A stretch of 64,000 nucleotides of DNA from an uncultured Candidatus Saccharibacteria bacterium (GCA_964591445.1 CAZQAW010000002.1:67394-131393); one strand, 5' to 3'. Shown: positions 29,450-58,974, counted from the stretch's first letter. Notes: a model not told the origin generated them from the sequence alone. Numbers and translations: made by a program.

Positions 29450-29752
29450 ATGGAACCGATTCCTTCCCAACCTCACGCATCGCGACGTCTTTTTATTTCG
29501 CTTATCGCGCTTATTGTTGTGGTTTTGATTGGGCTGTACCTTCATCGCGAACATGTCGTAGATGTTCCGTCGTTTCTTGATCGCGACACTACTCTTTCTG
29601 AAGAAGAACAAAAGGGAATTGTAAATATGAACGCATCGGGTCAAGCAAGTGAAGCGCAACTTTCTGCTCAGCAGAAAGCTATTACTTCAACACAGAAATC
29701 TTCTGGAAAACAAGGCATCTCCCTCGAAGAGCAGCAAAGTATTTTCAAATAA
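29450..29752 (+). CDS. small membrane protein
   Basis: 100 aa, one TM helix (LFISLIALIVVVLIGLYL); its stop abuts the next gene. Confidence 0.4.
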   Translation: MEPIPSQPHASRRLFISLIALIVVVLIGLYLHREHVVDVPSFLDRDTTLSEEEQKGIVNMNASGQASEAQLSAQQKAITSTQKSSGKQGISLEEQQSIFK

Positions 29753-29753
29753 T

Positions 29754-31628: not shown

Positions 31629-33032
31629 ATGAAAAAACAATTCGTCACATATGCAAAGATGTTCATAGTCGCAGTCGCCATTTTTTCTGGCGTGGGTTAC
31701 ATCTCTGCGCAAACTCCTCCGCCATGTTCAAGCCCGAGCGCTTGTAACGTTGCAGCTCCGGTAAATATTGGCACGACTGGCCAGATCAAAAATGGCAGTT
31801 TCGGAGTCGGTGGTGCATCGAGCAGTTTCTTTGTTTCGTTCTTCAAGTCATACTTGATGGGCGAAACGTGGGTAGGTCATGATGGAAGTATTATCAGCGC
31901 TGCAGGTTTTGCTGCGCCGGGAACACTTAAGGTGTATGGTGGTGCAAATAAATACGGCATCTTTGATGGAGCCTATGCAAAATTCGGTGATGTAAACAAT
32001 GGCAAATATCTCGAACTTGGTTACGACGGAGCGCATTCGACTATCGATGGCAAGCATTCAAATTCGGGCGACCGTGGACTTCTTCTCAATTATTATTCTG
32101 GTGGCAATGTTGGCATCGGTGGTGGGCCTGGTGGAAACAGTAACCTTACTGTTTCTGGTGATGCAACTATTTCTGAAAATGCTTACATACAAAACGGCAA
32201 ACTTGCTATAGGTAACAACGGAGGACAAGTTGAACGTTTGCAAGTTACCGGAGGTGCGAGAATTGACTCCGGATATGTTGTCGGAAACCTTGATGTTGGA
32301 AATGAACTTACTGTTGATGTTGATATCCGTGTATCAAGCAAGGGAGGTTCAGGCAATGCATACGCATGTTTTGATGCCAGCGGAAATCTATTTCGTTCAG
32401 ATACTCCATGTATCACCGCTCCACCACCTGCAACGGGTACCGCGACATTCTCTACTCCTGGAACTTCAAACTGGACAGTACCAGCCGGCGTAACTTCTAT
32501 CACAGTTAAGATTTGGGGCGCTGGCGGAGGCGGAGCTTCAGGTTCTTTTTTTGGTCCAGGAGTTGATGGTACAGATGGCGGTAATTCTGAATTCAAAAAT
32601 GGCGGCACTACAGTATTGTTTGCCGGTGGAGGTGAAAAAGGTATATCTATGTCAACTTACCCTGGTAATGGAAATTCACGTGGGGGTGATGGAGGAACCG
32701 CTTGGGGAGGTACAATAAATAATACGGGAAGTGATGGTGGCGAGACTTGTTCTTTTGTGCCGTCTCAAACTACGGGGGGTGTTCCAAGTCCTTCTGCGCC
32801 GGTTGCTGGTAAGGGTGTAGGTGGAGGTGGTAATTGTGGTTCAGGTGGAGCTGGAAACAACAAAGGACCTGGTGCGGGTGGAGGTGGCGGTTATTCTCAA
32901 GGAACATTTACTGTAGTTCCTGGTGGAGCTTATACTCTTGTTATTGGTGGTGCTGGTCTTGGTGGAGATGTTTTTGGAAGCCAAGATGATGGTTATCCTG
33001 GTGGTGCTGGTTACGCAACGATTTCTTACTAA
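31629..33032 (+). CDS. secreted glycine-rich beta-helix-like protein
   Basis: Signal peptide; long Gly-rich repeats (GGGPGGNSNLTVSGDATIS..., GGGGASGSFFGPGVDGTDGGN...) typical of fibre/beta-helical surface proteins. Confidence 0.55.
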   Translation: MKKQFVTYAKMFIVAVAIFSGVGYISAQTPPPCSSPSACNVAAPVNIGTTGQIKNGSFGVGGASSSFFVSFFKSYLMGETWVGHDGSIISAAGFAAPGTLKVYGGANKYGIFDGAYAKFGDVNNGKYLELGYDGAHSTIDGKHSNSGDRGLLLNYYSGGNVGIGGGPGGNSNLTVSGDATISENAYIQNGKLAIGNNGGQVERLQVTGGARIDSGYVVGNLDVGNELTVDVDIRVSSKGGSGNAYACFDASGNLFRSDTPCITAPPPATGTATFSTPGTSNWTVPAGVTSITVKIWGAGGGGASGSFFGPGVDGTDGGNSEFKNGGTTVLFAGGGEKGISMSTYPGNGNSRGGDGGTAWGGTINNTGSDGGETCSFVPSQTTGGVPSPSAPVAGKGVGGGGNCGSGGAGNNKGPGAGGGGGYSQGTFTVVPGGAYTLVIGGAGLGGDVFGSQDDGYPGGAGYATISY

Positions 33033-44423: not shown

Positions 44424-45896
44424 ATGCGCGATCGACTTCTCATTGCAGCGGTCGTTGGGTTTCTTTCTGGAATTTGTGCGCGTTCGTATGTGTTTGTTTC
44501 AATTCCGCTTGTTGGATTTATTTGTCTGCTAGGCGTTGTTTTGCTTGTTTCGTATTTTGTTTTCTATACACGCATGCGGATATTGTTTGCCTCGCTTTTT
44601 CTCATTTTTCTTTCGGTGGGTGTTGTGCGATTCCATATTTCCGATACGCCTCTTTATACATCAGATTTATTTTCAAGTGTAGATTCGCTTGTTGCAGTAG
44701 ACGGCAAGGTGGTCACCGATGTCGACACAAAAGAAAAAACTTCCGACTTTGTGCTCAAAGTAGGGAACGACAAAATCCTTGTCAAAGACGAAGTATTTTC
44801 AAAAGTTGAATACGGAGACATGGTGCATGTCGAGGGCATGCTCAAACTTCCGGAGAATTTTCTTGGCGACAACGGCAAAGCATTTGATTATGTAAACTAT
44901 CTTCGCAAAGACGGCATTGTATATATTGTTGAAAACGGGAACATAACTATACAAGAAAGTAACGGTGGATTTTTCTTGAAGCGATGGTTGTATAGCTTCA
45001 AGCATTTTCTCATGCATACTATCGACAAGCTCTTTACCATGCCAGAGTCCGGGCTTCTTTCTGGTGTGCTGCTTGGAACAAAAAGCTCTTTGGGTAATGA
45101 CTTGCGAGAGGAATTCATACAAACCGGAACGATACACATCGTCGCGCTTTCTGGTTACAACGTGACTATCATTGCCGAAGCGGTGATGGCATTGTTCACT
45201 CGAGTATTTCCGTTTTATGCGGGTATTGCCGGTGGTGCGGTTGGTATTATTTTGTTTGCACTTATGACCGGTGCCGGCTCGACTGTGGTACGAGCGGCAA
45301 TCATGGCTATTATGGTTTTGGTTGCAAAGGCGCTTGGGCGCGCGGCCGATGTCGGCCGCGCGCTGGTCTTTACCGCAGTTTCCATGATACTTTTCAATCC
45401 GTGGATCCTTGTCTATGATATATCATTCCAACTTTCATTTCTTGCAACTGTCGGCTTGGTGTATCTCACGCCAAAAGTGGAGCCGTATCTGAAACGTATT
45501 CCAGCAAAGTTTGGTTTCCGCACTATCATTGCTTCTACCATTGCCACGACGATATTTGTCATGCCGTTTATTGCTTACACCATGGGCAATTTCTCGCTTG
45601 TCGCAATTCCGGCAAACCTTTTCATCTTACCGCTTATGCCGCTTGTCATGCTTGTCGGCACGATTTCGCTTGCCGTTGGTGCGCTGTCATCTTTTATCGC
45701 ATTTCCAATTACGTTCATTTCATACGCGCTTCTTCATTATGTACTCGCAGTCATTCACTTTTTCGCCAAACTTCCATTCGCCTCAAAAACAATATCCCAC
45801 GTACCGCTTCTAGTCGTGGGAATTGTCTACGCTCTACTTTTGTACTATATGTTTAAGAAGCCGAAGCAAAGTTTGCTTCAATCACTTTCCAGTTAA
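44424..45896 (+). CDS. comEC: ComEC/Rec2 DNA-uptake channel protein, membrane (DUF4131 + competence) part only
   Basis: 490 aa; N-terminal OB-like DUF4131 region, then a polytopic competence domain (GTIHIVALSGYNVTIIAE...LSFLATVGLV); no MBL domain in this ORF. Confidence 0.8.
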   Translation: MRDRLLIAAVVGFLSGICARSYVFVSIPLVGFICLLGVVLLVSYFVFYTRMRILFASLFLIFLSVGVVRFHISDTPLYTSDLFSSVDSLVAVDGKVVTDVDTKEKTSDFVLKVGNDKILVKDEVFSKVEYGDMVHVEGMLKLPENFLGDNGKAFDYVNYLRKDGIVYIVENGNITIQESNGGFFLKRWLYSFKHFLMHTIDKLFTMPESGLLSGVLLGTKSSLGNDLREEFIQTGTIHIVALSGYNVTIIAEAVMALFTRVFPFYAGIAGGAVGIILFALMTGAGSTVVRAAIMAIMVLVAKALGRAADVGRALVFTAVSMILFNPWILVYDISFQLSFLATVGLVYLTPKVEPYLKRIPAKFGFRTIIASTIATTIFVMPFIAYTMGNFSLVAIPANLFILPLMPLVMLVGTISLAVGALSSFIAFPITFISYALLHYVLAVIHFFAKLPFASKTISHVPLLVVGIVYALLLYYMFKKPKQSLLQSLSS

Positions 45897-46446
45897 GGTT
45901 TGCGAAAAAGTCTTCTACGTATTGTTTTTTGCCGGAAGGTTGATAGTCTGCCACGTATGAATGCTCCCACATGTCGAGCGCGAGTACGATTGCGCAATCT
46001 GTGAGATGTCCCACATGTTGTTCGTCTACCCATTGGAGGATAAGCTTGCTATTTTTCTTGTCGTAGAAAAGTATTGTCCAGCCGATACCACGTGTGAGCG
46101 CAGTTCCCTTGGTGCGGGCCATGAATGCGTCCCAACTTCCGAAATCTTTTGTAACTTGCGCTACAAATGCGCCAGCTGTGTCGACTGCTTGCGCGCCGCC
46201 TTCGAGCGAATGGAAATAATATTCGTGGTTGCGCATGCCGTCAAACTCGAAAGAAAATCTGCGCTGAAGTTCGCCAAGTTCGTAGGCGTATTTTTCAGAA
46301 TCCTTCATAAGCTCGGCCATATGCTCGTTTATCAAATTCGCATGCTTCACGTAGCCTTGATAAAGCTTCATGTGCTCTTCGATATTTTTGGTCGAAATGC
46401 CTTGTAATTCTGGGATGGTAAATGTGTGCGCTGTAAATGGTTGCAT
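45853..46446 (-). CDS. sodA: Fe/Mn superoxide dismutase
   Basis: 197 aa from MQPFTAHTFTIPELQ...HHSKHH-like N-domain...DMWEHSYV (metal ligand D-x-W-E-H). The ORF-track extension to 46971 is antisense to the next gene and rejected. Confidence 0.85.
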   Translation of the reverse strand: MQPFTAHTFTIPELQGISTKNIEEHMKLYQGYVKHANLINEHMAELMKDSEKYAYELGELQRRFSFEFDGMRNHEYYFHSLEGGAQAVDTAGAFVAQVTKDFGSWDAFMARTKGTALTRGIGWTILFYDKKNSKLILQWVDEQHVGHLTDCAIVLALDMWEHSYVADYQPSGKKQYVEDFFANLNWKVIEANFASAS

Positions 46447-46482
46447 AGTATAAGTGGTTACGAGTAATGTCTTTATTATATC

Positions 46483-47367
46483 ATGATCCTGTTTTGGTAT
46501 ACTTGCTGTATGCAATTCTTGAAACGGAACCGCTGGCTTATACTTTTGTGTCTTGTTTTGCTGTGTATTTTTGTCTGGTGGAAATTGTGGTCTGCCAATA
46601 CCGGCAAGTTGCAAGTTTCTTTTCTGGATATTGGACAAGGGGACAGTATTTTTATCCAAGCGCCCAACGGCCGGCAAGTTTTGATAGACGGCGGCAGAGA
46701 CCAGACTGTTTTGAAACGCCTCGGCGAAGTGATGCCGTATGGCGACCGCTCGATAGACGTGATGATTGCGACGCATCCGGACGCTGACCACATTGGCGGG
46801 CTGCCTTTTGTGCTTGCACACTACAATGTTGCGATGGTAATGGAGCCTGGCGTGGGCTCGGATTCTGACGTGTATCAAACTTTTGAAGAAAAAATAGGGG
46901 AAGAGAAAGCGGCGCGCGAGTACGCGCGCCGCGGCATGACCCTCGTTCTCGACCAAGAAAAAAACATCCACCTCGATATTTTATTCCCAGACCAAGACGT
47001 TTCAACGTGGGAAACGAACGAAGCCTCCATCGTTGCCAAGCTTGTCTATGGACACACTTCTTTTTTGTTGACCGGCGACGCGCCACGACAAACCGAACTT
47101 TATTTGGACAAACTCAACAAGAAAGAACTCGACGTCGACGTGCTCAAGCTCGGCCACCACGGTTCGCACACGTCTACTTCGCCGACATTTATCCAAGACA
47201 CAACGCCCGACTACGCCATTATTTCAGCAGGCAAAAACAACAGCTACGGCCACCCGCACCCAGAAGTCTTGCAAGTGCTGGAAGCTTTCCAAGTGCCGTA
47301 TCTTGCAACGTACGAACAGGGAACTATTACATTTGTAAGTGATGGAGAAGTGCTTATTAAGAAATAG
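46483..47367 (+). CDS. stand-alone ComEC-type metallo-beta-lactamase domain protein (membrane-anchored)
   Basis: N-terminal TM; VSFLDIGQGDSIFIQ...ATHPDADHIGG...LKLGHHGSHTS motifs of the ComEC C-terminal MBL nuclease domain. Confidence 0.75.
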   Translation: MILFWYTCCMQFLKRNRWLILLCLVLLCIFVWWKLWSANTGKLQVSFLDIGQGDSIFIQAPNGRQVLIDGGRDQTVLKRLGEVMPYGDRSIDVMIATHPDADHIGGLPFVLAHYNVAMVMEPGVGSDSDVYQTFEEKIGEEKAAREYARRGMTLVLDQEKNIHLDILFPDQDVSTWETNEASIVAKLVYGHTSFLLTGDAPRQTELYLDKLNKKELDVDVLKLGHHGSHTSTSPTFIQDTTPDYAIISAGKNNSYGHPHPEVLQVLEAFQVPYLATYEQGTITFVSDGEVLIKK

Positions 47368-47478: not shown

Positions 47479-49266
47479 TTATTTAAAACAATAATGCTCC
47501 CAGGTAGTAGTCGGTTTGATGGTCGGAGTTTTGTAGTCCGGCAATGTGTCTTCGCGCATGTAGATTATTTTAAAGTTGTCGAGCTTCTGCCCGTCTTCCT
47601 TGTGGCTGTTGTTCCACTGTCGGCACAAATATTGCCCGTAGTACAAACGATACTTGCTGTAATCGCTTCGCCACAAATTCATCATGTATTTTTGCCAGCG
47701 TTGGTCGAAATACGTTTTCGAAACGAGCATCGGTTTGCCATAGTTTACCGGGCCGCCGTTTTTGTAGAGGTCAACCAAAGTTCCATCGCTCAGCGTGCCG
47801 GGAATAATGTACCAGCCGTCATCTATGAGCGGGTAAGGCGCAAACATGTCGAACTTTTGGTCGAGGCGTGTGACCCAGGCAAAAGGTTTCAAACTTTCGG
47901 GAATGATTTTCTTTGCACCGCCAAGCGTGTCGACGTTCCACAAAACAATATAAATAGTCACAAGCACAAGCGCTGTACTTTTCACTGCACGCACAACATT
48001 CTTCCGTTTTTCTTTGCCCGGAGAAAATATAACTTTCTTTGGTGGCAAGCAAATGGTGAGTCGTGAGTTTGCAGTTGTGCGATACAAATATTCTCCCACA
48101 TGGTGAATACCTGGTAATTTGAATACGAATACAAGCGGCCACCAGAGCGGAGAAAAACGAAGTGTGGCGATCAAACCATCAAATCCAAAAAACTTCCTGC
48201 CTTTTTCGTCTACTACAACCCATGAATTTTCTTTGCGCATGAGAGCTTCTATTTCTGCATCATTTTGCGCAGGCAAAATAGTTGTTTTCGGAGAAAGGAA
48301 AAGCAAACGTTTCAAGTATTGTACTGTGCGAGTGCAGAATCCGCAGTCTTTATCAAAGTAAATCGTGAGCCCAGCTTTGCGAGAAAATGCGAACCATGGG
48401 AGCACTTTGTCCCAGAAGATCGAAGGCAGAAGCCCGAGTGTGATAGCAATGCTGATCGCTCCGAAAAGCCCGATCGACATGGAAAGATTGATACCGATCT
48501 GGAACATTGCGAACAAAACAACTCCGACAAGGCGTGTATATTGATTCCATAAAGGGAAAATAAAAAGAAGGGTGCCATAAATCTCAAGCCAGATAGTCGA
48601 ATATGTGAGAAACGTAAGCGCGCGCGGGAAGCCAAGCAAAAAATGCCCGAACGGAGTAGTGAGCTGGTCGATGCTCAGTGCATAATACAGTGCGGTGCCA
48701 TCTTTCCATTGCACGCCTGTTTTCAAAAGTCCGGCAAAAAGATAGAAGACGAAAATCTGCGCAATGTAGCCGACAGTTGCGGCAGAAAACACGAGCTTTT
48801 CTTCGGCCGGTTTTGTATAGTTGCGGAAATTGTCAAAGCTCCATCGTGCGCCCCACGGCAGGAACATTGCAAAAAACATCACGCATCGCAAGATGACGTC
48901 GCCGCCTTGAATAACGAGAGGATTTCTATTTTGTACAGAAATAATAAGGAACCACGAAAGTACTGTTGCTAAAGTCGTGCGGTAGCCAATGAATACTGCG
49001 ACGGCAAGCAAGCCGGTGATGATGAAAAGAATTCCTTCAAAAAAAGCCGTGCCGCTCATGTGATGCACCGAAATGAGCCAAGGATTGTTGAAAAGTTCAA
49101 GAAGATGCGCGCGCGGCAATACGCCCAGATCTGTATAATGCGCCACCAAGCTCCGCCCGCGTTCGATAGTATCAAGCACAAGTATGAGCCCGATCGAGAT
49201 ACGCATCAAAGCCAAAGATCGGTAGTCGAGAGAGAAAAGCTTCTTCAAGTATTCGGTTATTTTCAT
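47479..49266 (-). CDS. HTTM domain membrane protein fused to a DCC1-like thiol-disulfide oxidoreductase (DUF393) and a C-terminal domain of unknown function
   Basis: N-terminal polytopic region with the HTTM (vitamin-K-carboxylase-like) topology; central IYFDKDCGFCTRTVQYLK matches the DCC/DUF393 CxxC motif; roughly 200-aa C-terminal domain unassigned. Confidence 0.7.
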   Translation of the reverse strand: MKITEYLKKLFSLDYRSLALMRISIGLILVLDTIERGRSLVAHYTDLGVLPRAHLLELFNNPWLISVHHMSGTAFFEGILFIITGLLAVAVFIGYRTTLATVLSWFLIISVQNRNPLVIQGGDVILRCVMFFAMFLPWGARWSFDNFRNYTKPAEEKLVFSAATVGYIAQIFVFYLFAGLLKTGVQWKDGTALYYALSIDQLTTPFGHFLLGFPRALTFLTYSTIWLEIYGTLLFIFPLWNQYTRLVGVVLFAMFQIGINLSMSIGLFGAISIAITLGLLPSIFWDKVLPWFAFSRKAGLTIYFDKDCGFCTRTVQYLKRLLFLSPKTTILPAQNDAEIEALMRKENSWVVVDEKGRKFFGFDGLIATLRFSPLWWPLVFVFKLPGIHHVGEYLYRTTANSRLTICLPPKKVIFSPGKEKRKNVVRAVKSTALVLVTIYIVLWNVDTLGGAKKIIPESLKPFAWVTRLDQKFDMFAPYPLIDDGWYIIPGTLSDGTLVDLYKNGGPVNYGKPMLVSKTYFDQRWQKYMMNLWRSDYSKYRLYYGQYLCRQWNNSHKEDGQKLDNFKIIYMREDTLPDYKTPTIKPTTTWEHYCFK

Positions 49267-49891: not shown

Positions 49892-49924
49892 AAAAAACCT
49901 TTCCGAGCGGAAAGGTTTTTTTAT
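49892..49924. terminator. bidirectional terminator (49375 gene / rpmB)
   Basis: AAAACCTTTCCGAGCGGAAAGGTTTTTTT. Confidence 0.65.
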
Positions 49925-50166
49925 TTGATTACTCCAGCTTTTTTCAAAGTTGCGTAGGCTCCGTTTTTTGCTAGTGTGCGCATGCCTTCTGTTGAGACTG
50001 AAAGCGTAAATGTTTTGCCGAGTTCTGGAACAAAAATGCGCTTTTTCTGGAGGTTTGGATACTTGCGGTGGCTGCCAGTCGGAGTAAAGATGGTAGCACG
50101 AGTACGGTTGGCGTATTTACCGCCGACAAGTGAGCTCTTTTTAGTTATTGCGCAGACTTTTGACAT
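49921..50166 (-). CDS. rpmB: 50S ribosomal protein L28
   Basis: MSKVCAITKKSSLVGGKYANRTRATIFTPTGSHRKYPNLQKKRIFVPELGK. Confidence 0.85.
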   Translation of the reverse strand: MSKVCAITKKSSLVGGKYANRTRATIFTPTGSHRKYPNLQKKRIFVPELGKTFTLSVSTEGMRTLAKNGAYATLKKAGVIK

Positions 50167-50207
50167 ATAGGTTTTGTGCCCCTTATGCTATCATATAGCT
50201 ATACATT

Positions 50208-50825
50208 ATGCAAGAGCTCGACGCTTTGTTCTATATAGTCATACTCATTATGTCCGTCGTGGTGCACGAGGTTGCTCACGGCTATGCGGCGTACTATTTT
50301 GGCGATACGACTGCCCGCGACCAAGGTCGGCTTACTTTGAACCCGATCAAGCATTTGGACATGTTTGGGTCGGTCATCATCCCGCTTATTCTTATCCTTA
50401 CCAAAGCTGGCTTCGTTTTTGGCTGGGCAAAGCCGGTGCCTTACAATCCGAACAATTTGTCTGACCGAAAAACGGGAACATTGTGGGTCGCAAGCGCAGG
50501 CATCATTGCAAATCTTGTGCTCGCAGTTTTCTTTGGGCTTATACTTCGTTTTGCTGGCGCGCATTTGCCGGGTGCGGTTAGTATTATTCTAAGCACTATC
50601 GTTTTTGTAAATATCGTCCTTGCAATCTTCAATCTCATTCCGCTTCCGCCGCTTGATGGTTCGAAAATTCTTTTTACTTTACTCGGACATCGCTCACATA
50701 AAGTCGAACGATTTCTAGAAACGTACGCACTTGCATTCGTGCTTATATTTGTGTTTTTCATTTGGAGGTATGTCGCACCGGTGATCGTTTGGCTCTTTAC
50801 TATTATTACAGGCATTCACCCATAA
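50208..50825 (+). CDS. site-2 protease family (peptidase M50) intramembrane metalloprotease
   Basis: HEVAHG (HExxH) in TM1 and NLIPLPPLDGS (LDG motif) in a later TM. Confidence 0.8.
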   Translation: MQELDALFYIVILIMSVVVHEVAHGYAAYYFGDTTARDQGRLTLNPIKHLDMFGSVIIPLILILTKAGFVFGWAKPVPYNPNNLSDRKTGTLWVASAGIIANLVLAVFFGLILRFAGAHLPGAVSIILSTIVFVNIVLAIFNLIPLPPLDGSKILFTLLGHRSHKVERFLETYALAFVLIFVFFIWRYVAPVIVWLFTIITGIHP

Positions 50826-50826
50826 T

Positions 50827-52785
50827 ATGAAAAAGTTCGTCACAGCATCTCTTTTTTTGCTTGCTACACTTTTTGTTTTTTTTCTCGCGCCTCGTTTTTC
50901 TCAAGCATCTGCAACAGTTGGAAGCATTGACCCAACGTCTTCTGGCAACTACAAAGCAAAACTTTTGTATGATGGAAGCGTTGTTAATTTCGGATATTTT
51001 CCGACGACGAATCCAAGCAAGCAAGTTTCGGTAACGACAAGCGAGCTTGATGGATACATCTGGGGTGAGACGATCGGCTGGGTGAGTTTGAATTGCTCAA
51101 ACAACAGTTCGTGCGGATCTTCCAATTTCAAAGTTTCCAATACTTCAAGCGGAGTTCTTTCTGGCTACGCGTGGGGAGAAAATGCTGGTTGGGTAAACTT
51201 TGGTCCGTTTGCAAATTCTGCTACTCCGTCCGTTGCTATCGACTCGACCGGATATTTTTCTGGTTTCGCATGGAGTGAAAATTTTGGCTGGATACAGTTT
51301 GATTGCGGAGTAGTAAATGCTTGCGTGAACACCGACTGGCGATATCCGTCTGGCACAAGCGGCGGAGGCGGCGTTGTTATTCCACCAACGACTACAGGCA
51401 CGAGCGGCACGACAACCACAAATGGTACGACAGATGGAAATGGAAACACTGTCGGCTCCACTGATGCAGGTGGAACAACCGATACTTCTGGCACAACCGG
51501 AACCGGGTTTGGAACTACGAGCGGCGGAAGCACTGGCTCATCTGGCAGTACAACCGGAAGCGGATTTGACCCGGGAACTTCCGGAGGCACAGGCGGGTTT
51601 GTGGGTGGATTTTTCTCGACCGGCGGCGGTGCGCAAGGTGGAAACAATGGCGGAAGCGGAAATGGCGCAAGTTCTGGCGGGCAAAGCAATCCGAACAATC
51701 CAACTTCAGATTCTTCTTGTGGCTCGCTCAGTATATTAAACGCTATCGTTTGCACGGTTCTTGAAACGTATCACTTCACGCAAGAATCTTTTATTGACGT
51801 AGTTGGCGGCATACGAAATGTGCTCTCAACTCCGGAAGGCGATAGCATTACGAAAATCATTGCAATCGTCGGACTTATTTTCGGTGCGCTTTTTGCGGTA
51901 CTGCCCGTGCTCTTTGGCACACCGCTTTCATTTTCTGAAATCGTTCTCATCCCGTATCGTTTGTGGTCGCTGCTTATGACGCTCTTTGGGTTGCGCAAGC
52001 GTTCACGTCCATGGGGAACGGTGTATGACTCTGTCACCAAGCAGCCTCTTGATCCGGTAATGGTGACACTTTCCGACATGGATGGAAAAGAAATCGCAAC
52101 GTCGATCACCGATATGGATGGCCGCTACGGATTCTTGGTCGGCCCCGGCATGTATCGCATCACTCCGGCAAAAACACACTATTCGTTTCCATCGGCAAAG
52201 CTCGTCGGCAAGACGAGCGACGAAGTGTATCCGAATTTGTATTTCGGTTATCCAATAGAAATCACTCAAGAAAGTGAAGTCATCACCAAAAATATTCCGA
52301 TGGATCCGGACAATTTTGATTGGAACGAATTTGCAAAACGCGACCAGCATTTGATGACGTTCTATTCAAAACAAACTGTCATTGTGGCAAAAGTTGCAAG
52401 CGTGTTGTTCTCTGTCGGGTTTACGCTTTCGTTCATCGCGCTCGTGTCTTCGTTTGAACTGTACAATGTTTGTATCTTCGCGCTCTACATCGCCCTCTTT
52501 ATTTTGCGCGAAACTGGTTTGAAGACTCGCCCTGGCGGCAAACTTGTAGATAAAAGCGGCGCACCGCTTTCGTTCGGCGTTGTTCGAGTCTTTACTGCAA
52601 CTTCCAAAACGAATGTGGCTACGCGCGTTGCCGACAAATACGGCACGTATTATTGTCTTATCCAAAATGGCGAGTACTACGTGACCATCGAACGCAAAAA
52701 TGCCGACCAATCTTACACTGTACTCCTTACCTCACCAACTATTCATGTCACGAACGGATTTATCAACACGACCTTCACTATATAG
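50827..52785 (+). CDS. large membrane/surface protein with three G[YF]AW[SG]ENxGW repeats, a Gly/Thr/Ser-rich linker, TM helices and two CarbopepD_reg-like beta-sandwich domains
   Basis: GYIWGETIGWVSLNC, GYAWGENAGWVNFG, GFAWSENFGWIQFDC; (G/T/S)n region 51350..51700; TVYDSVTKQPLDPVMVTLSDMDGKEIATSITDMDGRYGF resembles carboxypeptidase-regulatory-like domains. Confidence 0.6.
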   Translation: MKKFVTASLFLLATLFVFFLAPRFSQASATVGSIDPTSSGNYKAKLLYDGSVVNFGYFPTTNPSKQVSVTTSELDGYIWGETIGWVSLNCSNNSSCGSSNFKVSNTSSGVLSGYAWGENAGWVNFGPFANSATPSVAIDSTGYFSGFAWSENFGWIQFDCGVVNACVNTDWRYPSGTSGGGGVVIPPTTTGTSGTTTTNGTTDGNGNTVGSTDAGGTTDTSGTTGTGFGTTSGGSTGSSGSTTGSGFDPGTSGGTGGFVGGFFSTGGGAQGGNNGGSGNGASSGGQSNPNNPTSDSSCGSLSILNAIVCTVLETYHFTQESFIDVVGGIRNVLSTPEGDSITKIIAIVGLIFGALFAVLPVLFGTPLSFSEIVLIPYRLWSLLMTLFGLRKRSRPWGTVYDSVTKQPLDPVMVTLSDMDGKEIATSITDMDGRYGFLVGPGMYRITPAKTHYSFPSAKLVGKTSDEVYPNLYFGYPIEITQESEVITKNIPMDPDNFDWNEFAKRDQHLMTFYSKQTVIVAKVASVLFSVGFTLSFIALVSSFELYNVCIFALYIALFILRETGLKTRPGGKLVDKSGAPLSFGVVRVFTATSKTNVATRVADKYGTYYCLIQNGEYYVTIERKNADQSYTVLLTSPTIHVTNGFINTTFTI

Positions 52786-52800
52786 TGCTATACTAGCTGT

Positions 52801-54357
52801 ATGAAGAAGTTTCCTTTTCTCTCGCGCGTACAACATCATCCGCTTTTCACGCTCGTATTTTTCATCGCTTTCGGGCTTGTGGTTTCTTTCGTAAGCGTTT
52901 TTGCCGTGCCACCGGCAACAAAGTATGATCCTGGCGCAACGCTTGACCCAACATGTGCTCCGGGTGATACGAATTGTTCGGTTGCGGTGGGGACGGTTAC
53001 GCAAAGTTCTGGAACGCAAACTGATGGATATATTCCTTATTGGACTTCAAATGATAGAGAGCTTTTTATCGGAGGTCCGCAATTCCAGTGGGATGCAAAT
53101 CGGCGCCGTCTGGGTATCAACACAAACAGCGGACCGACCGCCACTCTCGATGTAGCTGACAATGGCGATTATGAAAATGATATTTTTCGCATTGCTGGTG
53201 CAACTTCGACTGTTGGGGATAGTGCTGGAATTTCAATAAGCTTGGGTACGGCTCTTGCTCAAAATGGCGTTGGTCAAACGGGATATGACGGTGGTGCTAT
53301 ATCTTTCTTAAGCGGTCGTGGTGGCGCTGGTGACGTAAGCGGTGGACTTGGTGGAAATGTCACTATTGGTGCACACAAGGGTGGCAATGCAAGCAGTGGT
53401 GTTGGTGGCGTGGGTGGTGGTGTTGTTATTAACGCTGGCGGCGCAGGGAACTCTGCAAACTCTGCAAATGGCGGGAATGGGGGCAGTATAAGTCTTAACG
53501 GGGGAGCACCAACTACTGGTGAATCTGTCGGCGGCGCAGGAGGTACTATAACACTTACTTCAGGTGCTGGAGGAGATATTACCAATGGCGCGGGCGCGAC
53601 AGCTGCTTCTGGTGCGCATATTCTTCTTACTTCGGGCAACGGCGGAAGCGCGCCGTCGGGCAGTACAAATGGCAATGGTGGAAATATTATTCTTGCCCCA
53701 GGAGTTGCAGGTACTGGTGGAGGCAACAGTGGTTCTATTGGCAATGTACTTCTTGCTGTTTCTGGTGGAAATGTTGGCGTGGGTATTACGAGCCCTCTTT
53801 ATCGGCTTCATGTTAAAGGCGACAACGGCGCTGGTGTCGTTGCAAAATTTGAAACTTCTGGTGGTGCAACAGCCTGTACGCTTTCTGCAACGACTGGACT
53901 TCTCAACTGTTCATCTGATTCTCGTTTGAAAAAAGATATTGAAAATATCGGCAGTGTACTCGACAAGATGCTTGCGCTTCGTCCGGTGTCTTACCGATGG
54001 AATACAGAAGACTCTGATGCTCCGCTTAAATACGGTTTCATTGCGCAAGAAGTCGAAGAGCAATTTCCGGCAACTGTTACGACTGATGAAGAAAGTGGAT
54101 ATAAACTTTTTTCACTCCAAGGTTTGATTCCTTACATTGTTAAATCTCTTAAAGAATTGAACGACAAAGTTGATTCTATTTCTGGCAATATTTCAAGCCA
54201 GGTTACGCAGGTGGTGCAAAGCATCATGCCGAGCCTGACTGTCGGCTCGGCCGAAGCTCCGACAGGTATTACGTTGTTCGACAAAACTACAACCGAACCG
54301 CATTGCCTTTCTATAAATAACGGCATCATCGAAACTACTCCTGGTGCGTGCCAGTAA
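52801..54357 (+). CDS. membrane-anchored tail-fibre-like protein with glycine-rich beta-helix repeats and C-terminal Peptidase_S74 intramolecular chaperone domain
   Basis: C-terminus SDSRLKKDIENIGSVLDKMLALRPVSYRWNTEDSDAPLKYGFIAQEVEEQFPATVTTDEESGYKLFSLQGLIPYIVKSLKEL closely follows the phage endosialidase/tail-fibre chaperone consensus (SDxRLKxDI ... GxIAQEVEE). Confidence 0.7.
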   Translation: MKKFPFLSRVQHHPLFTLVFFIAFGLVVSFVSVFAVPPATKYDPGATLDPTCAPGDTNCSVAVGTVTQSSGTQTDGYIPYWTSNDRELFIGGPQFQWDANRRRLGINTNSGPTATLDVADNGDYENDIFRIAGATSTVGDSAGISISLGTALAQNGVGQTGYDGGAISFLSGRGGAGDVSGGLGGNVTIGAHKGGNASSGVGGVGGGVVINAGGAGNSANSANGGNGGSISLNGGAPTTGESVGGAGGTITLTSGAGGDITNGAGATAASGAHILLTSGNGGSAPSGSTNGNGGNIILAPGVAGTGGGNSGSIGNVLLAVSGGNVGVGITSPLYRLHVKGDNGAGVVAKFETSGGATACTLSATTGLLNCSSDSRLKKDIENIGSVLDKMLALRPVSYRWNTEDSDAPLKYGFIAQEVEEQFPATVTTDEESGYKLFSLQGLIPYIVKSLKELNDKVDSISGNISSQVTQVVQSIMPSLTVGSAEAPTGITLFDKTTTEPHCLSINNGIIETTPGACQ

Positions 54358-54477
54358 CTATGTAAAAAATCCATAGAATAAGCCCCAAAAATCCCCGAGT
54401 GGTTATCCACAAGGGGATTTGACATTGACAAATAAATAGTGTATAGTGTAGAAAACCTTTAAAAAACAAAAAAGATA

Positions 54478-55239
54478 ATGAAAAACTACAAATCTATTCC
54501 GAAAGCACAGTACTCTAATAAGGAAATGCGTCTGATTCTGTTAAAGATTTTTATTTTCCACCTGTTAACGGTCATGTTGATGTTCAATCATGCACATGCC
54601 AACGTAAAAATCATTCGTTTTGATAAACAAAATGGTTTTACAGTAGATTCAACATCGTCCACAAATTTCAACAGAATTACTCCTCAGATGGAGGTTTGGG
54701 CAATAGGTGACACGTTCAATGTTGTCCCTACGGGGTCACCTCAGCCGTATCCCCAGTGGAGATTCATGAGATATTTCCATGTTTCGACTGGTACAAATCC
54801 GGTCGCGTATGCAGGTTTAAAACTTACACTTGCTGCTGACACAACCAATCCGGCAACATTTATCGAATACACTTTGAACACACCTGTAATGATACAGCCA
54901 ACAGATGATAGTTTGTTGATAGACATGGGAGTATTAGACGAGTGCACCGTTTATTCTTACGGTGTTGATATGTTTTACAGTATCGACACTGTAAAATCTG
55001 CTTTTTCGCAGATAAAGATTATGGAGTGTACCACAGGAATTACTTCACAAGAAATCAACTTCACGCTATATAACGGTACTATTGTTGCACCACTAAAGGC
55101 CACAATTGAAGTGTACGATCTTGCAAGCCGAAAAATCCGGCACGGCATTTCAGAGCTTAATGTTTCTGATCTACATGGTATATATCTGGTGAGGGTTTCT
55201 GTGGCTAAGAATTTTAGTACCAGAAAATATAGTTTTTAA
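54478..55239 (+). CDS. secreted protein with T9SS-type C-terminal sorting-like domain
   Basis: Signal peptide MRLILLKIFIFHLLTVMLMFNHAHA (probable start at 54526); C-terminus TIEVYDLASRKIRHG...GIYLVRVSV. Confidence 0.5.
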   Translation: MKNYKSIPKAQYSNKEMRLILLKIFIFHLLTVMLMFNHAHANVKIIRFDKQNGFTVDSTSSTNFNRITPQMEVWAIGDTFNVVPTGSPQPYPQWRFMRYFHVSTGTNPVAYAGLKLTLAADTTNPATFIEYTLNTPVMIQPTDDSLLIDMGVLDECTVYSYGVDMFYSIDTVKSAFSQIKIMECTTGITSQEINFTLYNGTIVAPLKATIEVYDLASRKIRHGISELNVSDLHGIYLVRVSVAKNFSTRKYSF

Positions 55240-55297
55240 AAAATAAGCGAAACTGTGTCATTGAAAGAAATGGGTTTTTCTGTAACAGCTAGCTTTT

Positions 55298-55330
55298 GCC
55301 ACCTCTACTGCACGGGGTGGCTTTTTTTTA
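55298..55330 (+). terminator. rho-independent terminator
   Basis: GCCACCTCTACTGCACGGGGTGGC then TTTTTTTT. Confidence 0.5.
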
Positions 55331-55419
55331 TTACCCATCCAATCCAAGGGCACTTGCATTTATTTAGCCCATATAGTAGAGTAGGAGCACTAGTCCGTAA
55401 GGACTTTTTTTATAGAAAT

Positions 55420-55845
55420 ATGCCAACAATCAACCAGCTCGTAAAAAAGAGCCGAAAGAAAGTACAGTACAAATCTAAAGCGGTCGCTCTCGCCCGCGGT
55501 TTCAACGCGATCCACAATCGTCCTGTATTTTACCCTGCGCCATTCAAAAGAGGCGTATGCTCAAAAGTGACGACAACTACTCCAAAGAAGCCTAACTCTG
55601 CGCTCCGAAAGATCGCCCGCGTACGACTTACGAACGGAATGGAAGTTACTGCGTACATCCCGGGTATGGGCCACAACTTACAAGAACACTCTGTAGTAAT
55701 GCTTCGCGGCGGTCGCGTGAAGGACTTGATCGGAGTACGTTACACTATCGTTCGCGGACGTTTGGATGCAACTGGTGTCGACAAGCGACGACAAGCACGT
55801 TCACGATACGGTGCAAAACGCCCAAAGGCAACAGATAAGAAATAA
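55420..55845 (+). CDS. rpsL: 30S ribosomal protein S12
   Basis: [14 protein letters not shown]...[61 protein letters not shown]. Start at ATG 55420 (the ORF track extends to 55255). Confidence 0.9.
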
Positions 55846-55850
55846 TTCAT

Positions 55851-56318
55851 ATGCGAAGAAAGATAAAGAACAAACGAATAGTAGAAGCTGACATGGTATA
55901 CAGCTCAGAGCGTCTTGCAAAATTCATCAACAACTTGATGTGGGATGGAAAAAAGGAAACAGCTCGCAAAGTTGTCTACGCATGCCTCGCGATGATCAAA
56001 GAAAAGACAACGCTTGACCCGCTTGAAGTCTTTGAAACAGCGATCAAGAACGCAAGCCCTCTTACTGAAGTCCGTTCTCGACGTATCGGTGGTGCAAACT
56101 ACCAGGTGCCTCGCGAAGTCCGACCAGAACGAAGACAGGCTCTTGCATTCCGATGGATCCTCGATGCTGCTCGCAGCAAGAAAGGCCAGCCAATGCACAT
56201 CAAGCTTGCGGAAGAATTGATCCTTGCTTCAAAGAACGAAGGAGCTGCGGTCAAGAAACGCGAAGACACGCACAAGATGGCAGAATCAAACAAAGCTTTT
56301 GCTCACTTTGCTTGGTAA
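55851..56318 (+). CDS. rpsG: 30S ribosomal protein S7
   Basis: 155 aa; ...RRIGGANYQVPREVRPERRQALAFRWILDAAR... Confidence 0.9.
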   Translation: MRRKIKNKRIVEADMVYSSERLAKFINNLMWDGKKETARKVVYACLAMIKEKTTLDPLEVFETAIKNASPLTEVRSRRIGGANYQVPREVRPERRQALAFRWILDAARSKKGQPMHIKLAEELILASKNEGAAVKKREDTHKMAESNKAFAHFAW

Positions 56319-56331
56319 TAATATACAACTC

Positions 56332-56370
56332 AAAAACAGCGGCGCCGGTAAACCGGCGCCGCTGTTTTGT
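56332..56370 (+). terminator. strong rho-independent terminator directly after rpsG
   Basis: ACAGCGGCGCCGGTAAACCGGCGCCGCTGT (13-bp GC-rich stem) then TTTTGTT. Confidence 0.7.
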
Positions 56371-56447
56371 TATACACATACAACTTTCGCGTCTCATGGT
56401 ACGCTATAAGTATATACAAGTCGCTTTATAAGCAATTTATTTTTATT

Positions 56448-57623
56448 ATGAAAAAAACTATCTGGGGCCTGGTGATAGCCATCATCGTAGTGCTCATTGT
56501 CATTATCAACATGCGCGTGCCGGGAGACAATCAGGAAGCATCTGGTGTCAGTACGCAACCAGGAGATGTGATTTCTTTTGTATTGGAACGTTCAGTTGCA
56601 AACAATGTAGATTATAGATCTAACTATCGTCTTGCAGGACCAAACGTGGGGCCTGCACGAGTGAAAACCTCCAATTCTCATCCAGGTTCGACGGCAACTA
56701 TCACCGAACTGAAAATCAAAGTTGCTTCAAATGTTGTAAATCCGGCAAGCGGCATTGGTATGTACGTAGGTTCGACATATACCACATTTCCTCTTGGTGC
56801 AGGTGGTATTGCTCACATCACAGGGCTCTCGATTCCCGTCACTTATGGAATGACTCAAAGCTTTCCTTTTGATATCATGTTTAGTCCGCTTGGCGGAACT
56901 GTAGTTTCTGGTTCGGTAGTCAACGCGGCAATCCAATACATCAAATATAATTTAAATGGAAGTACCTATACTAAATGTACGACATTTGGAGCTTGTAACT
57001 TCTGGATCAGTCCCTCTCAGTTGTACTATTATAATACTTCTACTTACATGCTTACGGGTTCTGTCTTTACAAACGGTCCTACCAAGCGTATACAACTTTC
57101 AAAACCTGCAGGAGCTCAGCTTACAAACGGAGTAAATAAACTTGCTGACTTTACGTTTGACACCAACAGTACTATTTTGGGACAAATGCGGATCAAAGAA
57201 GTTCCAATCACCATCAAATCTACCGGTACTGCAAACATCCCAGCCTCTGCAAACAATTTGAAAATCACAAGCGGGTCAAGCTCGTGTGCTACGGGAATAA
57301 ATCTTATACAAAATACTTCTGTTACACTTCTGGCTGGAGGTACAACGACTGTGCAAGCGGTGTTTCCTGGGAACGGCGTGCTCATCGTTCCAGGAACTTC
57401 CGTCACATTCCATGTCTGTGTTACGAACGTCGCTGGTGCAAATGGAGCAAACCCAACTTCACTTTCTACAACATTTGGACCGTCTTCAACATTCAAGTGG
57501 CAAGACGTAACTGGTAATAATCCCGCGTATTTTACTACTACGAACCCACAATTCTTGCAGGACTATCCAACCAATGCATCTGTTGTTGGCAACACTGCGT
57601 TCCCAATAAATCCGACTGAATAA
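56448..57623 (+). CDS. hypothetical membrane-anchored secreted protein
   Basis: 391 aa from MKKTIWGLVIAIIVVLIVIINM; Thr/Ser/Asn-rich beta-rich ectodomain; no motif. Confidence 0.5.
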   Translation: MKKTIWGLVIAIIVVLIVIINMRVPGDNQEASGVSTQPGDVISFVLERSVANNVDYRSNYRLAGPNVGPARVKTSNSHPGSTATITELKIKVASNVVNPASGIGMYVGSTYTTFPLGAGGIAHITGLSIPVTYGMTQSFPFDIMFSPLGGTVVSGSVVNAAIQYIKYNLNGSTYTKCTTFGACNFWISPSQLYYYNTSTYMLTGSVFTNGPTKRIQLSKPAGAQLTNGVNKLADFTFDTNSTILGQMRIKEVPITIKSTGTANIPASANNLKITSGSSSCATGINLIQNTSVTLLAGGTTTVQAVFPGNGVLIVPGTSVTFHVCVTNVAGANGANPTSLSTTFGPSSTFKWQDVTGNNPAYFTTTNPQFLQDYPTNASVVGNTAFPINPTE

Positions 57624-57661
57624 ATCCGCCCAAGGCGGATCAGCCTAGGGCTGAAATAAAA

Positions 57662-57696
57662 AAACCCGACTGCGATAAGCCGTCGGGTTTTTGTTT
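57662..57696. terminator. bidirectional terminator
   Basis: AAACCCGACTGCGATAAGCCGTCGGGTTT then TTTGTTTT; preceded by a second hairpin ATCCGCCCAAGGCGGAT. Confidence 0.6.
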
Positions 57697-57713
57697 TAGT
57701 TTTGCCAAAATAT

Positions 57714-58205
57714 TTATGGCTGGGTTCTGTATGTTTCCCATGGGGTAGCATCTGCTCCGAACTCGTTCTGGTAAACGATCCTTATATCATAATCAGTATT
57801 CGGTATCAGGTTATTGATATCCTGAAAGACGAGCCAAAAACTATATCCAGGAATATGGCACCATGTTGAGGAGGTGACTGCTGTTATCCCAGTAAGTCTT
57901 ACTTCGATCCGCATCTGCGATGTGAGCGCATTTGCATGATAGTACATCAACATCACTTGCAACTTGTTGGTAAAACGATCTACGATTACCGTGTCAATTG
58001 TAGGTGCTTGGTGGAAGGGAATAATAGTTGTAGGCGGGATTCCTAGTCTTGGGCTTTGCATCACATCGAGTGGCTCAAAACGCGGTTCCGAAAAAGTAAT
58101 TTCAGGAGCAGGTTTTGAAGGCGCTACTTCTTCACCTGTATCCTTAGTACAAGATGAAAAACCAATAATTAGCATTGCAATTAGGGTGAAGGTTTTTATG
58201 TTCAT
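57714..58205 (-). CDS. putative lipoprotein
   Basis: MNIKTFTLIAMLIIGFSSC lipobox; 163 aa beta-rich. Confidence 0.5.
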   Translation of the reverse strand: MNIKTFTLIAMLIIGFSSCTKDTGEEVAPSKPAPEITFSEPRFEPLDVMQSPRLGIPPTTIIPFHQAPTIDTVIVDRFTNKLQVMLMYYHANALTSQMRIEVRLTGITAVTSSTWCHIPGYSFWLVFQDINNLIPNTDYDIRIVYQNEFGADATPWETYRTQP

Positions 58206-58377
58206 TTTGTTGAATTTTTAAAGGGTTTGAATATCTAGCTATTTACTTATATTATATACTATTTTACCATATTTGTCAATCTCTATTATGTGGATAAATA
58301 TAAGGCTTATTTGACAAAAAATATACAATATGTATGATTTATAAAAACTGAAACTCATAATTTAAAAATTAAAAATC

Positions 58378-58974
58378 ATGGTAAAAAAAGAAAATTCCTC
58401 GCAAACTTTTCTTGCAAGAAAACTTGCATCTGTTGGAGTCACTCAGGCAGACTTCAAAAGTGCCTTTACAGAAGATAACAAGACAAATATAGGGTCATTC
58501 GGAGAAAGCGATCCCACATTTGCTAAGCTTTTGTTTCCGGAAAAAAAATTTACTAAAAAAGAAATTGCACTTTTGGACGAAGCTGTAGATTGCGCCATGT
58601 GCATCAAGAGCTCTAACAGCTACAAAAAAGCCTATGCAAGTTTGGAAGCGAAGTGTCCTGGTATTGCGGAAGTTGGACAGAAGCTTTTTCACGCTTATAA
58701 CATTATTACATATAGCGGGAGAAGAGATTTAAATAAGAATGAGCAGAAAGTCATGGATCAACTGATGAGCACGGAAATTTCTGCTAAAATGGTGAAAGAA
58801 TTACAGATTGAAGATCTGTGGGAAGACGTAAGAGGGGAAAGAAAAAATGCTGCTTCCCGGCTCCGTAAGATTCTCGAAGATCCTCTATGGAAAAGATTTT
58901 TCATTACCAAATTTGTTTCAGACTTCTCTATAACGACCGCCATATCTGAGGCGCTGAACAAGAAGATTCCTTAG
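58378..58974 (+). CDS. hypothetical protein
   Basis: 198-aa ORF, helical, no motif; terminator downstream. Confidence 0.45.
   Translation: MVKKENSSQTFLARKLASVGVTQADFKSAFTEDNKTNIGSFGESDPTFAKLLFPEKKFTKKEIALLDEAVDCAMCIKSSNSYKKAYASLEAKCPGIAEVGQKLFHAYNIITYSGRRDLNKNEQKVMDQLMSTEISAKMVKELQIEDLWEDVRGERKNAASRLRKILEDPLWKRFFITKFVSDFSITTAISEALNKKIP

Follow-up and report, generated by a model that had tools for sequence, protein, structure and literature searches.

Overview of the locus

The window analysed here, a 64,000-nucleotide (nt) stretch of GCA_964591445.1 (CAZQAW010000002.1:67394-131393), contains a cluster of four open reading frames (ORFs) on the same strand that encode proteins of 205, 652, 518, and 253 amino acids (aa), with intergenic gaps of 1, 15, and 120 nt. 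The third product, a 518-aa protein that ends in a Peptidase_S74 (S74) domain, is interpreted with moderate confidence as an exported trimeric surface fibre that follows the plan of a phage tail fibre and is made by the cell, likely an adhesin and possibly docked on the product of the preceding gene, a 652-aa membrane protein termed CPD. The first gene encodes an M50 intramembrane protease. The locus is chromosomal DNA of Paceibacterota (Candidate Phyla Radiation (CPR)/Patescibacteria), flanked by rpmB and rpsL-rpsG-fusA. An earlier note on this DNA had described four co-directional, tightly spaced genes, and they are found at the positions it gave.

The S74 fibre protein

The fibre gene can be divided into a leader, a conserved Cys-containing head, a Gly-rich shaft, and the S74 chaperone:

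52801–54357, +: gene for the S74 fibre predicted to be exported, 518 aa
52801–52905, +: leader, residues 1–35, predicted Sec signal peptide ending ...VFA↓V
52906–52983, +: conserved Cys head, residues 36–61, with PGATLDPTCAPGDTNC at 52930–52977; proposed docking end
53066–53770, +: hypervariable shaft, residues ~89–323, with Gly-rich repeats of 20–24 aa
53914–54354, +: S74 chaperone/autoprotease, residues 372–518, with Ser372 at 53914–53916 and Lys377 at 53929–53931

Residues 372–426 match PF13884 (Peptidase_S74) at E 1.1e-17, their 64.5 bits exceeding the cut-off of 22, so that the C-terminal chaperone domain read by the earlier note is borne out by the profile search. The domain contains the motifs SDSRLK (372–377) and GFIAQEVE (412–419); Ser372, Asp373, and Lys377 are invariant among 21 aligned sequences, and S[DE]xxxK is present in 26 of 30 cluster-linked fibres. 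The SDxxxK spacing is that of the catalytic dyad of endosialidase, MYRF, and Bd3182 of Bdellovibrio, and both the Ser/Lys dyad mechanism and self-cleavage have been demonstrated for endosialidase/MYRF (PMC3742443) and for Bd3182 (PMC10769870). The C-terminal 147 residues have the size and order of the intramolecular chaperone and, in a sequence search of the PDB, align through weak matches with the chaperone ends of the solved phage fibres 8jov and 6f45. A match of this domain to TAL-effector repeats in the PDB search is spurious, and the whole fibre returned no matches from the PDB. In the AlphaFold2 (AF2) model, residues 370–460 have a predicted local distance difference test (pLDDT) score of 85–90, and a long helix (439–478) follows the S74 core. 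By analogy with the characterised proteins, the S74 part is predicted to be released after trimerisation.

Seven to eight Gly-rich repeats of 20–24 aa lie within residues 164–322, and Gly makes up 32% of residues 140–330, as befits the Gly-rich fibre protein originally described. The loop GNVGVGITSPLYRLHV is positioned between these repeats and the S74 domain.

The leader is basic and then hydrophobic, with an invariant Ala35. Leaders of the family end in [YF]A↓[TVA]PP, which fits the −1/−3 rule of signal peptidase I and hence a cleavable signal peptide. The protein, first thought to be membrane-anchored, is thus probably secreted following removal of the leader. The head that follows conforms to the consensus PP..KY.PGxTLDPxCxPGxxNC, with 13 positions invariant among eight divergent members (P37, P38, Y42, G45, T47, L48, D49, P50, C52, P54, G55, N58, and C59).

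The fibre family and its relation to phage fibres

An exhaustive profile search with the fibre leader and head against 1.84 billion proteins returned 1,293 cluster representatives (clusters at 50% identity), 433 of them at E<=1e-10. Nearly all of the 150 matches listed align at the extreme N terminus (residues ~1–75), and among the matches listed, lengths span 445 to 4,116 aa in the 131 members of at least 400 aa, of which 120 carry S74 at the C terminus. One complete head-bearing protein (L052) is without S74. The label "tail fiber domain-containing" is already given to such proteins by public pipelines; NCBI names one member [quoted passage not shown], and the JGI label on member P0186 is trimeric autotransporter adhesin.

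The N-terminal region sets the family apart from viral fibres. A hydrophobic N terminus is found in 27 of 30 Paceibacterota fibres versus none of 83 viral S74 ORFs from IMG/VR, which also have no Cys head and whose contigs contain neither a CPD nor an M50 gene. The head is likewise absent from all 3,491 viral ORFs searched. Viral matches to the fibre cover only residues ~320–487, at no more than 41% identity, and 244 named phages share only residues ~321–487 with it, at 28–37% identity. Because the leader and head are missing from the viral ORFs searched and the likeness to phage proteins is confined to the C-terminal part, the fibre is regarded as the phage fibre plan in a form that belongs to the cell and is exported by it.

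Three further observations concern fibre genes at other loci. Tandem fibre-gene pairs with near-identical leaders and heads and different shafts are present in L017, L037, L040, L198, and L207, which suggests duplication followed by shaft diversification. At L011 (10033–12942), a 970-aa open frame with S74 is uncalled in the public record, where small opposite-strand ORFs are listed instead; automated annotation can thus miss Gly-rich fibre genes. At L185 (16050–19168), a cassette resembling a diversity-generating retroelement lies directly 3′ of a fibre-CPD pair; its products are a 426-aa protein that belongs to no Pfam family, a bAvd-like protein whose 29.9 bits fall short of the cut-off of 40, and a reverse transcriptase.

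Strain variation in the fibre and the adjoining slot

Comparison with a near-identical strain (L002) shows where the fibre changes. The amino acid identities of M50, CPD, and S12 are 99%, 98%, and 100%, respectively, as opposed to 67% for the fibre, and the fibre itself is a mosaic: identity is 98% over residues 1–40, 42–57% over 81–320, ~70% over 321–440, and 85–100% over 441–518. The same pattern is seen at the nucleotide level by blastn against L002:

49929–53065: L28, M50, CPD, and the first ~88 fibre codons, 94.7% identity
53066–53770: fibre shaft, similarity undetectable
53771–54485: S74 region, 76.9% identity
54486–55323: 253-aa gene, no similarity; an unrelated 202-aa gene stands in its place
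55324–56279: rpsL onward, 97.1% identity

Conserved flanks therefore border a hypervariable island of ~2.3 kb (53066–55323). In the fibre, the cell-proximal head and the chaperone end are retained and the shaft is exchanged, the pattern of kept ends and swapped part that is also seen in phage receptor-binding proteins. Such exchange has been described as "tip swapping" in the "mosaic adhesive trimeric" (MAT) fibres (PMC10769870).

The island also includes the fourth ORF:

54478–55239, +: variable-slot gene, 253 aa, with a signal-peptide-like N terminus and no Pfam family

This gene had been taken for a cluster member encoding a secreted protein with a C-terminal sorting domain. Its match to PF18962 (Por_Secre_tail) is below threshold (12.7 bits versus a cut-off of 27, E 0.16), and the genes that occupy the same slot in L002, L003, L005, and L015 are unrelated to one another; with the outright replacement in L002, these results led to its rejection both as a fourth member of the cluster and as a protein with a type IX secretion system (T9SS) C-terminal sorting domain. 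It has its own promoter-like (54419–54447) and terminator-like (55298–55321) sites.

The CPD membrane protein

CPD belongs to a family of 765+ proteins and 483 species-representative contigs, almost entirely from Patescibacteria and named Candidatus Paceibacterota, Nomurabacteria, or Parcubacteria. Its layout, derived from a 26-member alignment and an AF2 model, is modular:

50827–52785, +: gene for the CPD membrane protein, 652 aa, of a Patescibacteria family
N terminus: signal peptide, then a confidently modelled all-β N-domain, residues ~30–176 (pLDDT ~90), with about four Cys
51052–51081, 51163–51192, 51262–51291, +: GYAWxENxGW-type repeats within the N-domain
Residues 177–302: disordered Gly/Ser/Thr linker
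Residues 336–357: transmembrane (TM) helix
Residues 369–386: conserved Pro/Arg-containing helix
Residues ~402–495: transthyretin-like domain 1, with RPWGTVYDSVTKQP at 52006–52047; KKRxRPWGTVYDSVTKQP leads in
Residues 515–564: TM hairpin
Residues 566–652: transthyretin-like domain 2

The three repeats noted previously are present; two, GYAWGENAGW and GFAWSENFGW, agree exactly with G[YF]AWxENxGW, and the third, GYIWGETIGW, is a variant. Beside the first TM helix, P366, P376, and R378 are invariant or near-invariant. The two CarboxypepD_reg-like domains proposed by the earlier note are supported indirectly: PF13620 (CarboxypepD_reg) has no match to the window protein at E<=0.01, where only sub-threshold matches to SdrD_B (19.9 bits, cut-off 29.7) and NOMO_5th (18.5 bits, cut-off 27) are found, whereas most CPD homologues carry PF13620/PF13715, and Foldseek relates the β domains of the AF2 model to transthyretin-like/carboxypeptidase-D domains (5aq0, TMt 0.66, weak E). 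Judged from its homologues and the model, CPD appears to work like a CarboxypepD_reg protein and to belong to the family so annotated.

The distribution of charge bears on its orientation. Lys plus Arg per 15 residues amounts to 3.9 after helix 369–386, 3.5 before TM3, and 3.0 after TM4, versus 0–0.5 in the two short loops. Provided that helix 369–386 is not a full membrane span, the positive-inside rule would assign the two transthyretin-like domains to the cytoplasm.

A short motif is seen soon after the predicted signal-peptide cut in both proteins, as G(T/S)ID(P) in CPD (50914–50940, residues 30–38), with G32 and I34 near-invariant, and as an invariant GxTLDP in the fibre (52930–52950, residues 44–50). 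It may be a sorting or processing signal, or a coincidence.

Linkage of fibre and CPD genes

Two sets of loci were used to examine linkage. In the first, 39 species-representative loci centred on CPD, with at least 4 kb on each side, the backbone L28(−)/M50/CPD is observed in 25, with S12/S7 next in 23 of these. One or two fibre genes are present in 14 of the 25 backbone loci, at three positions: between M50 and CPD, between CPD and S12, or after S7. Comparison across relatives thus shows a recurring backbone that often includes the fibre; the linkage to M50 is confined to this lineage-specific backbone, and the 253-aa gene shows no conservation. Each of the 27 S74 ORFs encountered across 1.24 Mb of CPD-centred loci lies on the same strand as CPD, 21 within 500 bp of it, and every head-bearing ORF is within 6.6 kb of a CPD gene. 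Fibres accompany the backbone (14/25) more often than CPD paralogue loci without M50 (1/14; Fisher p=0.005), and within the backbone every locus with a fibre has a CPD that includes the repeat N-domain (14/21 with this domain versus 0/4 without it, p=0.026). At L087, CPD and fibre are found together downstream of S7, apart from M50, and the pair moves together at L084 too.

The second set was a metagenome sample picked by the head, in which 13 loci have flanks of 2.5 kb or more to either side of the fibre gene. CPD is within 3 kb in seven of these and within ~5 kb in nine, in either order, co-directional, and with ORFs that often overlap. In the CPD proteins encoded next to these fibres, the signal peptide, TDGTID, and repeat N-domain recur. 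The pairing of fibre and CPD is frequent (~60%), not obligatory. These linkage data, the correlation with the repeat N-domain, and the presence of a secreted domain on a flexible stalk above a conserved membrane core are the reasons for proposing CPD as the dock.

Several observations weigh against this reading. The remaining 11 backbone loci have no fibre, four of the 13 fibre-centred loci have no CPD, and three more distant fibres are also found without CPD nearby (L176, rplE-fibre-rpsH in the spc operon; L177, murJ-fibre-lepA; L178, pheT-fibre-FKBP); CPD is therefore not an obligatory cis-encoded partner. The samples behind the linkage statistics are small and phylogenetically non-independent. 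On the structural side, the topology of CPD is ambiguous, hinging on helix 369–386, and beyond its S74 domain the fibre is poorly modelled by AF2, with nothing significant returned by Foldseek from that model. A poorly modelled shaft is what would be expected of an obligate trimer.

The same exceptions lend some credit to a rival account, which is considered possible though rather improbable: the fibre would be an autonomous exported surface protein, carried as a mobile cassette among strongly expressed core operons (str, spc, and others), with the CPD-rpsL junction a mere hot spot and adjacency to CPD and M50 devoid of function. The CPD-less fibres and fibre-less backbones are what such a cassette would leave behind, as are the fibres that follow rpsG, not CPD, in L040 and L086 and the unrelated genes that fill the post-fibre slot across strains. 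A hot spot at rpsL does not, however, account for the fibres located between M50 and CPD, away from rpsL, in at least nine loci, for the CPD-fibre pair downstream of S7 in L087, or for the pairs without rpsL or M50 in L084, L185, L198, and L242. Moreover, the ORFs often overlap (distance 0–25 nt), adjacency of ~60% compares with an inferred expectation of a few percent for one to three CPD genes in a genome of <1 Mb, and the restriction of fibres to loci whose CPD has the repeat N-domain would be unexplained.

At L176 (9001–11541), the head-bearing S74 fibre gene encodes 846 aa and is co-directional with the spc ribosomal-protein genes that surround it. Together with the str operon of the window, this placement suggests a preference of fibre genes for core operons with strong expression.

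Proposed assembly and comparison with known systems

In the proposed scheme, the fibre chain would be exported by the Sec pathway through its long leader, with a probable cut after Ala35. The C-terminal S74 chaperone would bring three chains into register, the Gly-rich shaft would fold as a trimeric β-helix, and the Ser372/Lys377 dyad would then cut off the chaperone, residues 372–518. The mature fibre, residues ~36–371, would have its Cys head at the cell-proximal end and its fast-evolving shaft exposed for binding. Export, trimerisation, and autocleavage are proposed because of the domain content and the experimentally established behaviour of S74 domains elsewhere. CPD would provide the dock at the cell surface, its secreted repeat N-domain binding the fibre head at the end of a long flexible linker and its TM part tying the assembly to the cell. 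By comparison with characterised relatives, the most likely function is that of an adhesin or recognition fibre directed towards a host cell or another surface.

The closest known system is the S74 subgroup of the MAT family of Bdellovibrio bacteriovorus, for example Bd3182. Bdellovibrio has 21 chromosomal MAT fibres, 13 of which contain S74 with SDxxxK (Caulton et al. 2024, PMC10769870). Besides a signal peptide, these fibres possess a conserved N-domain that "would presumably tightly bind a surface element"; self-cleavage has been demonstrated, as has a role in prey recognition (PMC10769870). S74-like examples in that paper come from Micavibrio, Ca. Uabimicrobium, and Omnitrophica, and Patescibacteria do not appear in its text or in three supplementary files, among them the table of examples from other taxa (PMC10769870). 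Like MAT fibres, the fibre described here is encoded by a chromosomal, non-phage gene and consists of a predicted signal peptide, a conserved N-terminal module, a variable fibre, and an S74 domain with SDxxxK; the MAT order of leader, conserved module, fibre, and variable tip is found in this family at the level of architecture. Members lacking S74 exist in each family (here L052), the producers are in each case bacteria that live on other bacteria, and both families evolve as mosaics of a conserved base and a swapped distal part. The main differences are the N-terminal module, a Cys head of ~25 aa here rather than a β-rich domain of ~130 aa, the length of the fibre (518 aa in the window versus ~1,000 for MAT), and the producer, a monoderm-type CPR bacterium rather than a diderm predator. 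Homology between the Cys head and the MAT N-domain is doubtful. In addition, the recurrent neighbour CPD is a candidate anchor here, whereas the MAT anchor is unidentified.

Phage fibres and tailspikes, including the K1F endosialidase (3GW6), T5 pb1 (4UW8, PMC4690869), the S16 gp38-type fibre (6f45), and 8jov, resemble the fibre in that an S74 Ser/Lys dyad ends a Gly-rich β-helical fibre, with sequence similarity over residues ~320–487. They differ in having no signal peptide or Cys head (0/83), in being encoded among virion genes, and in being attached to a baseplate or tail; the gene described here lies among ribosomal and housekeeping genes, and its product would be exported by the cell. 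The MYRF/ICA-domain factors (PMC3742443, PMC8326128) are, as here, a case of a phage S74 domain domesticated by the cell, in which the corresponding invariant Ser and Lys, S578 and K583, drive trimerisation-dependent self-cleavage. Cleavage of MYRF detaches a transcription factor at the N terminus from a membrane anchor at the C terminus; in the fibre, whose hydrophobic segment is at the N terminus, cleavage would remove nothing but the chaperone. Trimeric autotransporter adhesins share the trimeric, fibrous, surface-exposed form and repetitive stalks; however, they end in a C-terminal outer-membrane β-barrel in place of which the fibre has an S74 chaperone, and the organism is probably without an outer membrane.

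A structural or defensive role in the envelope, as a spike associated with an S-layer or as a phage decoy or shield, would shift the cause of the variability to pressure from phages or predators. Strain hypervariability is equally expected of phage-exposed surface proteins, and further large surface proteins are encoded in the window, among them a Big_7/CARDB protein of 1,727 aa and a repeat-domain protein in addition to CPD. Set against this, the characterised S74 fibres, whether from phages or the MAT fibres of Bdellovibrio, are all receptor-binding or adhesive, and an envelope role is considered unlikely.

The M50 protease

50208–50825, +: gene for the M50 protease, a minimal membrane metalloprotease of the site-2 protease family, 205 aa

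The 205-aa protein matches PF02163 (Peptidase_M50) with 60 bits against a cut-off of 27.2 (E 2.8e-16) and retains both motifs of the family, HEVAH at residues 20–24 (50265–50279) and NLIPLPPLDG at residues 142–151 (50631–50660), in agreement with its first identification as an intramembrane protease. It falls below every NCBIfam equivalog cut-off (RseP, daptide, LiaK). The M50 gene adjoins or overlaps the CPD gene in 25 of the 39 CPD-centred loci, including L013, which has a different upstream context, and would be co-transcribed with CPD in this lineage. It is near only one of nine informative fibre-CPD pairs in the fibre-centred sample, which rules out M50 as an obligatory partner of the fibre; around the pairs without M50, only housekeeping genes were found as further conserved neighbours. 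M50 belongs to the lineage-specific backbone, and the pairing of fibre and CPD has no need of it. The earlier suggestion of a dedicated surface system beside a protease is thus retained as to a surface-fibre, adhesive role, which is the best reading, but CPD and not M50 is the recurrent partner.

Likenesses to the site-2 protease systems RseP/RseA, SpoIVFB/pro-sigma-K, and Eep lie in the HExxH and NxxPxxxLDG motifs within the 205-aa protein, in an operon shared with a polytopic membrane protein, and in the conserved prolines near a TM helix of that protein. Unlike those systems, the M50 protein here has no PDZ or CBS domain, no sigma/anti-sigma factor or site-1 protease is encoded nearby, and linkage to the fibre is lineage-specific. 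The probable substrates of M50 in this lineage would be CPD or leaders.

This activity could be made the centre of the locus. The cluster would then be a module for regulated intramembrane proteolysis in which M50 cleaves the Pro/Arg membrane region of CPD, setting its cytoplasmic transthyretin-like domains free to signal surface contact, or the long fibre leaders for maturation or clearance. Helix-breaking residues are needed in site-2 protease substrates such as SREBP and RseA, and site-2 proteases degrade signal peptides; the intact catalytic motifs, the frequent adjacency to CPD, and the placement of P366, P376, and R378 beside TM1 are consistent with such a role. The scarcity of M50 near fibre-CPD pairs argues otherwise, as does the lack, within the cluster, of a sigma/anti-sigma factor, another transcription factor, or a site-1 protease candidate. 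The order L28-M50-CPD-S12 may also be mere lineage synteny, neighbouring genes being syntenic too. Little probability is accorded to this arrangement. Similarly low is the standing of an extension of the favoured adhesin reading, in which the fibre would be a host-recognition adhesin of Paceibacterota episymbionts, CPD a TM dock and sensor that relays contact, and cleavage of CPD by M50 would free cytoplasmic transthyretin-like domains in the M50-linked lineage. If true, this would amount to a hitherto unknown contact-sensing apparatus derived from a domesticated phage fibre.

Chromosomal setting

The window is core chromosome. It encodes PNPase, the CCA-adding enzyme, tRNAs, RNase Y, ClpP, trigger factor, NusA, PGK, RecJ, RNase H, ComEC, superoxide dismutase, and L28, followed by the cluster and then by S12, S7, and EF-G. 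The borders of the cluster are as follows:

49921–50166, −: rpmB (ribosomal protein L28), divergent upstream border of the conserved backbone
50160–50189, +: promoter-like site TTGACA-18-TATGCT, 5′ of the M50 gene; weak evidence
55420–56318, +: rpsL-rpsG (S12, S7), downstream border of the backbone

PF00830 is found on the rpmB orthologue in L003, L005, L009, and L011, and phmmer finds rpmB in 40+ loci. Because counts of promoter-like and terminator-like sites were not above shuffle expectation, the gaps of 1 and 15 nt are the main basis for the operon structure. A contig of run SRR12762304 is 100% identical across 50349–55521.

A prophage or tailocin tail-fibre module within the chromosome is effectively refuted: the C-terminal part does resemble PHROG tail-fibre families and phage tail fibres, and the window contains an ORF6N gene and a tyrosine recombinase (11345–12370), but the latter is of XerC/D-type architecture and lies ~39 kb away beyond housekeeping genes, no capsid, terminase, portal, tail tube, sheath, or baseplate gene was found in the 64-kb window by Pfam and PHROG searches, the S74 protein being the only PHROG match, the GC content is unremarkable, the same rpmB-rpsL slot is used in many Paceibacterota species, and the leader and Cys head are lacking in the 83 viral S74 fibres. 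The earlier note's view of the S74 gene as cellular and non-prophage is upheld by this housekeeping context, export leader, and cross-species synteny, and of the prophage hallmarks that it reported missing, capsid and terminase are indeed absent from the window, whereas its "no integrase" overlooks the recombinase.

Other features of the window lie outside the cluster. The str operon is interrupted at 56367–58974, where three ORFs without a Pfam or PHROG family, of 418 aa (+), 163 aa (−, with a lipoprotein-like "SSC" signal), and 198 aa (+), are positioned between rpsG and fusA; small unannotated genes are found there in other loci too, e.g., L011 and L013. ComEC is split (44424–47367) into a Competence-domain gene (44424–45896) and a metallo-β-lactamase-domain gene (46483–47367) separated by the superoxide dismutase gene on the opposite strand, an arrangement common to L009, L011, and L015. 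Just upstream of the cluster, 47479–49266 (−) encodes a 595-aa fusion of HTTM and a DCC1-like thiol-disulfide oxidoreductase, which is not at that position in L009 or L011 and may be relevant to disulfide formation in Cys-containing surface proteins.

A secreted protein of 630 aa (29649–31541), the second with CPD-type repeats (LTGYAWSENVGWLKF, NGGWTGWVSFDG, and LSGYGWGADMVSING), is followed by a 467-aa Gly-rich secreted protein (31629–33032); both are without a Pfam family. The product of 14526–15788 matches PF18962 (Por_Secre_tail) above threshold (E 1.3e-9) and contains FG-GAP repeats, and proteins with T9SS-type C-terminal sorting domains are also encoded at L005 (8066–9742) and L015 (2134–3753). 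Neither a T9SS nor an outer membrane is known in CPR bacteria.

Implications

The cellular reuse of S74 fibres has already been documented in MAT fibres (2024, PMC10769870), and no new principle is claimed here. Literature searches found no paper that ties S74/ICA domains to Patescibacteria, CPR, or Parcubacteria, or a site-2 protease to Parcubacteria. How CPR/Patescibacteria outside Saccharibacteria find and attach to hosts is largely unknown, and the experimental work found in these searches concerns type IV pili in Saccharibacteria. The locus defines a large Paceibacterota-specific family of phage-like S74 fibres, predicted to be exported and genetically tied to one conserved membrane protein. 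The fibre and CPD are testable candidates for a host-recognition determinant and its anchor, respectively, and the combination of conserved head and variable shaft would offer a marker for strain-level variation in host range in metagenomes.

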